From NCBI GenBank assembly GCA_050125095.1, contig JASFEA010000015.1:1-32279 (forward strand): a stretch of 32,279 nucleotides of DNA, written 5' to 3'. The stretch comes from a bacterium (GTDB lineage Bacteria; Arandabacterota; Arandabacteria; Arandabacterales; JALGWA01). Shown one piece after another: positions 1 through 3,000 of this stretch. The position numbers were made by a program. Within the stretch, counting starts at the first letter, position 1; the number at the start of each line of letters is the position of its first letter.

Positions 1-3000
1 AAGATGTATGGACTATGGGTCGACCGCATAGTCAAAACCGCCGTCCGGATGATCGCAAAATCATGCTAGGTATCACTTCCTGATGTCACTCCCCCCGGGA
101 CATGAACCACTCTCTCAATTCCCATAGGTAGAGCCCGGCGGCCTCCTGCTCTCTCACAGAGGGCATGTAAAGAAAAGGGGCCCCGCTGGGGGCCCCTTCC
201 GTTTGAAGTCGCTAGCGGCCCTGATTCAGAGCCACTTCGCGGAAATCTCTACCAGGATGATCTCCTGCCACCGCCACCGCCACGGCCGCCACGGTCGCCA
301 CGGTCGTTACGCGGCTTGGCCTCGTTGACGTTGAGCTCGCGGCCCTTGAGCTCGGTGCCGTTTAGGGCGCTCATCGCGGCGCGGGCTTCGTCATCCACCG
401 GCATCTCCACGAAGCCGAAGCCCCTGGACTTGCCTGTGTACTTGTCGGTGATCAGGTTCGCATTTGCGACCTGGCCATGAGCCTCGAAGGCTTCCTTAAG
501 ATCTTCCTGTGTCACTTCCCATGACAGATTTCCTACGTAGATATTCATTCCTATCTCCCGTTTATTTCGAACAGTTGTACTCTACCGGATTTGACTTGAG
601 CCTGAATGGGATCACGTAACCAGCCGCTTCTCGAGGGATCCAAGGGGTTCTAGGCAGTTCCGAGCGCAGATCTGTTCAAGTTTACCTTGATTTCGATACT
701 TCCTTATTCAATTTGTTTACTGCTTCAATGCATGAGGGTTGAGACCTGTCACCTCCGAACTCTCAAAGCCCTTTAGTTAAAACGCTATGCGGCTGTCCAA
801 CCACAGTCTATTCTGCCGGTGCATGTACTTAGCCCGCAGTCTGTAGTTACATAACTTTAATAAGATCTTCGGCAGAAGTCAAGCAGAAAGAAGGTTTTTC
901 TGCAAAACGCCGGCCGCAAGCGAGGTGCCTAGTCCTGGAAGGCGCCGTAGCGGCCGGTGTTCTTACGATCATGCCGGAAGCACGGCCACGGAGACGCGGC
1001 ATAGCCCATGCTGGTCGTCTCTATAGCGTGCAGGCCCCCGTTGTTACCGTTTCTGATATGGTGGTCTCCGATATACAGCGTCCCGTCAGGCATTATCGCG
1101 GCGGAGGACCAGTTGATGGCGCCGATCTCGGATAGCCAGTTGAGGGATCCATCGGCATTGAGGGCATAGAAGTACTCGTTTTCAGCGCCGAAGTAGATTA
1201 TGCCGTCCGCTCCGACCGTGGGACTGGAATAGACGTCCTCCAACGGGGACGGGTCACCGGGCCTCTCGACGACATACTGCCAGATCACCGTACCGCCCGG
1301 GCTCAGTGCTGTCACACGCCCCTTGTTGGTCGGACAGGCCTTGGTCGGAACATAAATGGAGCCGTCGGCGCCTATTGTCGGAGTGCCGCGCACATGGCAG
1401 TATGAGCCGTCCACAGGGTATTTCCACTTGACCGTGCCTTCGGAATCGATTGCCCAGACCGTCGACTCTCCACCGCTCTCCACGCCGAAATAGAGTGTGC
1501 CGTCGGTGTCTATGGACGGCGAGGTGAATGACATATCCGTCTCATGATCGAACTTGATGTGCCAGCGCTCGGTGCCGTTGGGGTTGACCGCAAACAGGTC
1601 GTCCTGGTGGATGGTTACGTAAATGGTGCCGTCTTCGCCGATCACCGGAGACTGCCGGCATGACCTGGCGTTATACGGCGTAAATCGCCAGATGCGCTCG
1701 CCCGTATCAGGGTCAATGGCATAGAGCCCGTCCGCGGCTATGTACACCGTCCCGTCGGCGCCAATGGCGGGCACGCGCTGGCCCACGAAGTAGACCGGGT
1801 GCTCGGGGTACTCGAAATCGTCGAACTTCCATCTCAGGTCACCGGAGGGCGATAGCGCATATACTATATTTCTGAAGTCCTGCACATAGACTGTCCCGTC
1901 CGGACCGATGGCGGGGGAGTACGGGTTGTTCTCGCAGTCGTAAGACCACTTTATCGTGCCGCCCGGCGCCACCGCGTATACACTCCCCCAATCCGTGCCG
2001 ATATATATGCCTGTAGATACATATATGGTGCCGTCGTCCCCCACGGCCGGTACGCAGTAATAGACATCCTTCTCAAGCTGAAGCGTCCACTTCACTTTCT
2101 TGGAGCAGAATACCTCCAGGTTGTGATCGCGGTTCATGATGAAACTGCCGCTGTCGGGAACAGCAACGCTGTCGAGTTCTACCATCAGGCTGGAATAGCC
2201 GCGCCTGAGCGAGTACAGGTAATATATGGTCTCGACCCAGGTGTACTCAAAAACTATGGGTTCGGGATAACCCCATACCCCGCCGCAGGTCTCCACCGTA
2301 AGAAGGTATGATTCCTCCTCCTCGTCGGGAGCCGTAGCCTCCGAATCGCCACCGCAGCCCGTTGCAGCAAACTGGCAGCAGCCGAGAATGAAAAGCGCTG
2401 CCAGTAAGCGCAATCGTGAACGCGTTTTGCAGCAATAGTCCCTCATAGATGAAGACCATTCTAGCAGAATGTGGTGGCATTTTGAAGGTTTTATGGGCGC
2501 GGGGGCATGCCTCACCCCAAGACATTGATGAGTCCCGGGGGAAACCGCCGAGCGGCCACGCCAGAGGATGCAAAAGCCCAGAAATTCGGTCGTGCGGGGA
2601 TTGACTTTCAGGGGTACTTTACCTATGTTAAATGCTTGGTGAAATGAGTCAAGGTCGACTGCCAGAGACACGGATATCCACCCAGGGGAGTTCAGCGGAT
2701 TGTGGGTGTGGCCGTTCTGGCCGAGTGACGCAGGGCCCGGAAACGAGGCCGGAGCTCTAGAAAGGAAGCACAAATGGCTACAAAGGCATACAATGCTTTT
2801 CAGATGGCTCAGGCGCAGTTCGACAGGATCGCCGATCTTCTGGATCTCGACAGGCCCACCAGAGATCTGCTTCGCAATCCCCTCAGGGAGTATCACGTGA
2901 GCATCCCCGTGAGAATGGACGATGGTTCTTTCCAGGTATTCCGCGGCTTCAGGGTTCAGCACAACGACGCCCGCGGCCCGGGCAAGGGCGGCATCCGCTT

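Follow-up and report, generated by a model that had tools for sequence, protein, structure and literature searches.

What does a long, folded leader do in front of a gene for a small RNA-binding protein? A genome survey of an uncultured bacterium of the Arandabacterales had described such a leader upstream of both single-RRM genes and named it a candidate autoregulatory or temperature-sensing element. We analysed the copy in a window of 32,279 nucleotides (contig JASFEA010000015.1, positions 1 to 32,279). The leader is a new RNA family among the long regulatory leaders of RNA-chaperone genes, and it most likely controls the lifetime of the message and the output of the protein. Arandabacterota is presented in the available part of PMC9727166 as an FCB-group phylum of sediments, and leader-bearing RRM genes occur in uncultured sediment and wetland bacteria.

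Results and Discussion

The RRM gene, its promoter and its transcript

The features of the locus are as follows, in window positions.

854..882, minus strand: sigma70-type promoter, TTGACT (882-877), 17 nt, TAAAGT (859-854)
about 847 to 549, minus strand: leader, between the promoter and the single-RRM gene
800..848, minus strand: P1, 5' hairpin, variable, lost in L025 and L236 (RNAalifold; z -6.7; 6/6 pairs with two-sided changes)
789..795, minus strand: 5' strand of the long-range pseudoknot, CAGCCGC (RNAalifold; z -3.5 on 20 representatives)
735..772, minus strand: P3 hairpin (z -3.8, anchored)
749..756, minus strand: box GGAGGUGA in the P3 loop, a perfect Shine-Dalgarno (SD) sequence that lacks a start codon and lies some 200 nt 5' of the AUG
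680..734, minus strand: purine-rich linker of variable length with GAAGY repeats (726-722, 702-698), putative RRM sites
567..679, minus strand: 3' domain with P4, P5, P5b and P6 (covariation scans, 42-pair structure)
677-672 with 574-569, 663-659 with 589-585, and 643-638 with 612-607, minus strand: P4, P5 and P6
621..627, minus strand: 3' strand of the pseudoknot, GCGGCUG, in the P6 apical loop (RNAalifold; 42-pair structure)
554..558, minus strand: true ribosome-binding site (RBS) GGAGA, 10 nt after P4, GGAG being invariant in the 38-sequence alignment
249..548, minus strand (548->249): ORF of a 99-aa single-RRM protein with a Gly/Arg tail (RRM_1, E 9.5e-24)
169..196, minus strand: G+C-rich hairpin with a T-rich tail, probable terminator, visible in the sequence and in many relatives

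The terminator scan of the window did not call the hairpin at 169..196. The promoter scan gave two sites against 0.9 expected overall, a count that is not significant alone. The shared TTGAC promoter reported by the survey was recovered, since TTGACT-17-TAAAGT reads from 882 to 854 and a promoter-like site lies at the same spacing upstream of 22 of the 26 RRM loci, with one TTGCTT variant besides. The transcript would start near 847 on the minus strand, and the promoter at 882-854 therefore gives a leader of about 300 nt. Many loci conserve the promoter spacer as well (window 860-876, TCTGCCGA after TTGACT), a possible site for a regulator.

Wetland metatranscriptome RNA contigs from four studies match the locus free of mismatches, at 299-833, 478-835, 476-833 and 449-703. 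The first covers the leader and most of the RRM ORF. Contigs from three studies end at 833-835, about 13 nt short of the start proposed above, and one further contig has the letters of the paralogue. These data are contigs from 4 of 24 listed runs, without strand, start or level information. No RNA contig fell on 871-2600, a weak absence given that contigs alone from those four runs, and no DNA run, were compared. The leader of about 300 nt is transcribed together with the RRM gene.

Two of the contigs (X2 and X3, 476/478-833/835) cover mainly the leader, as would be expected if it were released as a separate trans-acting small RNA, titrating for example the 30S subunit or the RRM protein. However, the contigs enter the ORF and one spans it for the most part, the leader has no internal terminator, and it always lies directly upstream of the RRM start at a fixed spacing. 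Such a release is thus very unlikely.

Elsewhere in the window, positions 2774-9041 encode a Glu/Leu/Phe/Val dehydrogenase and, after it, two PPDK_N-domain proteins, of which the second has a C-terminal nucleotidyltransferase domain.

Distribution of the leader

Of the 16 genomes of the order, 14 carry RRM loci, 26 in all; the whole phylum comprises 18 genomes, and the two beyond the order add no RRM locus. The counts that the survey gave for these 26 loci stand. A profile was built from 23 of them. Most of its length is matched by each of the 23, a part of it by L006 and L012, and none by L011; the profile found no third leader copy in the bacterium's own genome. Despite the profile miss, L011 keeps a recognisable 5' half, like L022.

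Further copies were sought in metagenomes with a pattern in which the box, GAACAG and CTGTTC were fixed and the knot was left free. It gave 52 matches, 18 of them true leaders, and all 18 directly precede an RRM gene. The same pattern on genome contigs gave 87 matches with 13 true ones, all duplicates of known loci, and in the first genome-wide pattern scan 6 of 119 were real among the matches listed. Removal of duplicates left 40 distinct leaders, of which two partial ones were left out and 38 were aligned. The three fixed words are invariant in the 15 new sequences by construction of the search pattern. In L202, from 807 onward, a typical leader is joined at the start codon to a divergent RRM gene of lower GC; the junction is probably an assembly chimera and possibly a gene swap.

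The paralogue leader on C211 is identical to the window leader at 288 of 356 positions, reproducing the 81% likeness that the survey had put forward. This identity is weak evidence, because the four-fold sites of the two RRM genes are also 74% identical (28/38). Mean identity among 20 representatives is 58% for the leader, against 36% for the four-fold sites; the leader is therefore under selection.

Helices and pseudoknot

RNAalifold alone selects P1 and the knot helix. All six helices were recovered by an unbiased scan of 2347 window pairs, in which pairing within a sequence is compared with pairing across sequences. The z values ranged from -6.7 on the paired side to +2.8 on the other side, with -6.7 for P1, -3.5 for P6, -3.0 for the knot (the strongest energy), -2.7 for P4, -2.6 for P3 and -2.4 for P5. 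With anchored segments on 20 representatives, P3 reached p 0.0001, the knot 0.001 and P6 0.001, kinship not being modelled; P4 was marginal (p 0.02 and 0.05) and P5 was not significant (p 0.06 and 0.16). Over the 38 leaders, the 42-pair structure has 87.1% of its cells paired, two-sided changes at 21 of 42 pairs, and covariation of 0.188 against 0.134, with 0 of 500 shuffles, while slid controls are 26-38% paired. The conserved pseudoknotted fold claimed by the survey is borne out by these values. As judged from the aligned sequences, helices P1, P3, P4 and P6 and the long-range pseudoknot are selected.

The survey had cautioned that the knot is mostly invariant. This worry is eased by compensated pairs in the knot core, C-G to U-A in L236 and A-U to G-C in L022, and at the knot flanks, where pairs swap as U-A/G-C, A-U/U-A/G-U and U-A/C-G/G-C. 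Many copies leave the flanks unpaired, and in the window's copy this is so at two positions. Two natural deletions, L006 and L011, have lost the 3' domain with the 3' knot partner; in both the 5' knot word has decayed and the box hairpin is kept.

One might suppose that the likeness was simply inherited after a recent duplication, with no selected structure. The four-fold sites of the paralogues would fit this, as would two nulls: the single window sequence folds no better than shuffles (z -0.78), and in a per-pair G-test against a tree-simulated null no column pair was significant (best E 1.65). Yet synonymous sites are saturated while leader words are invariant, covariation appears at the level of helices, and the core is common to another phylum (see below). 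Mere inheritance is largely refuted and hardly credible.

P1 and the knot are the only dominant helices in predicted ensembles, where P3 and P4 lie at about 0.2. An alternative helix joins the upper 5' strand of P3 (767-763) with 594-590, UCAAA beside P5. It was picked post hoc among the 2347 window pairs with z -3.6, is 84% paired, and has covariation of 0.286 against 0.190 with 0 of 500 shuffles. Anchored, it gives z -2.6 and p 0.006, and one pair is seen as U-A, G-C, C-G and U-G. Provisionally, this helix may compete with upper P3, and it would then widen the loop that displays the box. A pairing of the box with the strand that follows GAACAG (27-35 of 38 sequences paired in each column) is treated as no more than a possibility, since the anchored test found no covariation between them (z -0.9). 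A strand-swap helix between the 3' strand of P3 and the 5' strand of P5 was rejected, having no signal (z +0.7).

A start-less Shine-Dalgarno box

The survey described an invariant anti-16S box. Its anti-16S character stands, as GGAGGTGA exactly complements the 16S tail of the same genome. GGAGGTGA is present in 24 of the 26 loci and is off by a single base in the remaining two. The box is thus kept, with no more than one change, in 26/26 loci of the order, including those without the 3' domain. The predicted duplex of the box with 16S has -17.3 kcal/mol, compared with -7.3 kcal/mol for the true RBS. A start codon follows the box within 3-14 nt in 1 of 38 leaders. No conserved short upstream ORF was found in the 38, the frame of the GUG in the box running for 2-74 codons with frameshifts. 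A leader-peptide attenuator is therefore not supported.

The linker after P3 is 67% purine. It holds 33 copies of GAAGY in 20 representatives against 6.6 expected, although related copies are not independent, and each leader has 0-4 copies.

The GGA in the hairpin loop, and the presence of CsrA in 16 of the 18 phylum genomes, raise the question of whether the box is a CsrA site and the leader a CsrA operator. The CsrA consensus is ANGGA. However, the base two before GGA is A in 3 and G in 31 of the 38 leaders, ANGGA is depleted (25 against 41.7 expected), and a CsrA site would leave all 8 invariant bases unexplained. There is very little probability in this reading. Two CsrA genes were seen in the bacterium's own genome, G000 (C46:7360-7509 and C8:7377-7529), and in 6 other phylum genomes.

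The box and the 5' knot word CAGCCGCA might instead sense or mimic the 16S 3' end, such that the tails of free or immature 30S subunits could invade the knot. Antisense matches to CAGCCGCA and GGAGGUGA lie side by side in the tail, 20 and 10 nt from its end, that of CAGCCGCA directly next to the anti-SD. Where the tail was found (4/16 genomes) it is the same throughout, and 5' variants of the knot core are mostly wobble-compatible with it. The knot helix is nearly a copy of the last helix of 16S, which we take to be h45. Against this, h45 is paired in the mature 30S, the match was noticed post hoc, and the tail pieces occur in swapped order. Moreover, the knot flanks covary with their cis partner rather than with 16S, the word decays once the cis partner is deleted, the second lineage described below has different knot words, and no role in ribosome assembly was found for the Bacteroides RRM proteins. 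A 16S sensor is thus improbable.

The ribosome-binding site and temperature

Among 201 window pairs, no covarying helix over the true RBS was found (best z -1.8). Over the range of 10 to 50 C, access to the RBS is predicted to shift only from 0.45 to 0.55. The lack of such a helix, together with the nearly flat access, does not support a classical thermometer, and in that form the temperature sensing offered by the survey falls away. A classical RBS-masking thermometer and a translational riboswitch are both unsupported, as no conserved helix that pairs with the RBS was found.

A metabolite or ion riboswitch with a pseudoknotted aptamer would account for the sequence-invariant helices and the long-range knot. 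It has to contend with the lack of a covarying anti-RBS helix, with the want of a terminator inside the leader, with conserved bases that lie mostly in helices, and with a regulated gene that encodes only an RNA-binding protein. We assign this possibility a low probability.

A protein-independent cold thermosensor would work differently, through two exclusive folds of which the cold one is more stable and better translated. E. coli cspA is the precedent; in the part of PMC4166951 at hand, it is a cold-shock RNA chaperone gene with a long leader whose alternative folds set stability and translation. The present leader is likewise long, precedes a chaperone gene and has competing helices. It differs from cspA in having no sequence or Rfam match to it, the Rfam csp leader models matching neither the window nor 12 loci, and in that no temperature switch is predicted here: between 10 and 55 C the probabilities for helices and RBS stay almost constant in software that cannot model the knot. 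A covarying RBS-masking helix was not found either. A cold thermosensor is accordingly doubtful, leaning to unlikely. The lineage's own csp leaders, of about 50 nt, have nothing in common with the RRM leader. In L342-L356, about 50 nt upstream of csp genes, a small hairpin TTGC-N4-GCAA is conserved just before the SD.

A compact leader in a second phylum

L030, the nearest outside RRM locus, pointed to genome G018, a member of a second phylum with 13 genomes. This phylum has 12 RRM loci with a leader of about 150 nt, composed of a hairpin with loop CUCGCC, a small hairpin, and GAAC-CGGA...GGCGA...UCCG-GUUC ending about 10 nt before GGAG. RNAalifold found these stems unaided. The 29 pairs are 92% paired, with covariation of 0.133 against 0.085 and 0 of 500 shuffles; the 4-bp core of the kissing knot is invariant. 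Nine of ten matches of the second-lineage pattern precede an RRM gene.

Matrices were trained on 19 first-lineage leaders and compared with 448 background sites (450 sampled from 934, minus two RRM genes). Nine of the 12 compact leaders outscore all 43 other RRM leaders and all background sites. The core is absent from the Bacteroidetes-type RRM leaders among these 43 controls. A model of the first-lineage 3' domain matched 10 of the 12 compact leaders at E<=0.008, with matches that end at the RRM start. It also matched L379, from a third, single-genome phylum, at 6e-5. The match in L379 (1373-1497) is mainly to the 3' strand of the core. Control RRM leaders score 0.011 and 0.027 with this model, because the SD-start context adds score. 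In the reverse direction, model R1, of the whole compact leader, matched no first-lineage locus and gave only 2 weak, unrelated matches in 151 genomes. Model R2 had one credible match in 41 further genomes, the RRM leader of G034; 5 weaker matches were not credible.

The compact leader has neither the GGAGGUGA box nor GAAGY repeats, and it uses different knot words. Box and GAAGY thus cannot be the universal operator. Because the second phylum has the core but no box, the leader consists of two modules, a shared core of the knot plus P4/P5 and a lineage-specific box hairpin. The survey had viewed the leader as a single element specific to the order. What remains of that view is a conserved, uncatalogued cis-leader of RRM genes; the element itself is two modules, the 3' one occurring also in the second phylum. 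A tree of 82 RRM sequences (about 82 aa, FastTree) places both lineages in one group supported at 0.90, in which leaderless genes fall as well; the tree is too weak to order the events.

A model for control by the leader

We give about even chances to a specific form of cis-acting, post-transcriptional control. The RRM protein would be a cold-shock-type RNA chaperone, a parked 30S subunit and the knot would set mRNA lifetime or loading, and the RRM would feed back on its own leader. Module I, P3 with the box, would park a 30S subunit. The parked subunit, the 5' hairpin and the knot may then hinder endonucleases that scan from the 5' end. The parked 30S might also, or instead, pre-load ribosomes beside the weak true RBS, to which the knot would bring it near. 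Module II, P4/P5 with the knot, lying 10 nt from the RBS and common to two phyla, would be the operator. Accumulating RRM protein may bind the GAAGY linker or internal loops and shift the weak helices, such as P3 against the alternative helix, lowering output, and cold would probably favour the productive fold. The Bacteroides rbp genes, by analogy, make autoregulation or cold control plausible.

The bacterium's own genome has RNase E/G and RNase Y. RNase J (TIGR00649) was found in 0/18 phylum genomes, 0/10 among the near-complete ones, and in 5/5 hosts of the compact leader. According to the accessible text of PMC9943677, pseudoknots and bound ribosomes block RNase E scanning, which would offer a route to stabilisation without RNase J. 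In favour of the model, the two RRM-less genomes of the other order have 3 CSP genes, and most genomes with an RRM gene have 1; the two genomes of the Arandabacterales that lack RRM genes have only 1 CSP gene, which speaks against it.

A bolder proposal is a ribosome-sensing switch. Here a 30S subunit would sit on the start-less SD, some 200 nt upstream. The knot and a second long-range helix would dock the hairpin onto the RBS-proximal domain, and alternative pairings would hide or show the box. The supply of free 30S would then set the lifetime or loading of the chaperone mRNA without RNase J. At its boldest, the knot strand would also read the 16S helix beside the anti-SD. We hold this switch to be possible but doubtful.

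Relation to known leaders

No description of the leader RNA was found in the literature searched, which included few subscription papers and no supplements of later motif surveys. In line with the survey, Rfam has no relevant match for the window or for 12 loci. The nearest catalogued RNA is Chlorobi-RRM (RF01697), which is, by the available part of its description (PMC2864571), also a structured RNA and probable cis-regulator upstream of RRM genes in an FCB-group lineage. That part depicts 73 positions with simple hairpins and a U-rich end, and knot and box are absent from it. Identity with Chlorobi-RRM was rejected, its covariance model having 0 matches at E<=10 in the bacterium's own genome and none in the window or 12 loci.

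The 5' UTRs of Bacteroides rbpA/B/C resemble the leader in being long and in preceding single-RRM genes (PMC13370968, PMC11697453). They are 122-155 nt, and the available part of their description gives no structure. These genes are cold-induced and under negative auto- and cross-regulation partly via the UTR, as far as the accessible text of PMC13370968 goes, and RbpB binds its own mRNA (PMC11697453, in part). The same accessible text, a 2026 preprint, poses thermosensor versus feedback operator as an open question for long bacterial RRM leaders. The present family offers for this an alignment-backed fold, natural deletion variants, and a compact form of about 150 nt for synthesis and probing.

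In the operator of phage T4 gene 32, which encodes a single-strand-binding protein, the leader combines a pseudoknot with an unstructured tract of repeats. In T4 this tract extends into the RBS, whereas here a 110-nt domain separates the repeat tract from the RBS.

The box resembles STAB-SD of cry3A, where a strong SD in the 5' UTR binds 30S but opens no reading frame (PMC4113751, available part). STAB-SD blocks RNase J1, which has no counterpart found in the 18 genomes here, and, unlike STAB-SD as described in that part, the box lies in a conserved hairpin loop within a knotted fold. The leader carries features not described for RNA-chaperone leaders in the literature searched. If the model is true, a start-less perfect SD in a conserved loop extends control by ribosome parking beyond the Firmicute STAB-SD, into a phylum in which no RNase J was found.

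Other lineages carry conserved RRM leaders unlike the one studied. Rfam has no relevant match to L031 and L033, which share with L032, L035 and L041 (one of them titled Zixibacteria) a different conserved long leader, about 180 nt upstream of the start. Further lineage-specific conserved RRM leaders occur in L037 and L040, in L373-L375, in L381, L395 and L397, and in L363 and L368. Long RRM leaders seem to recur with different folds.
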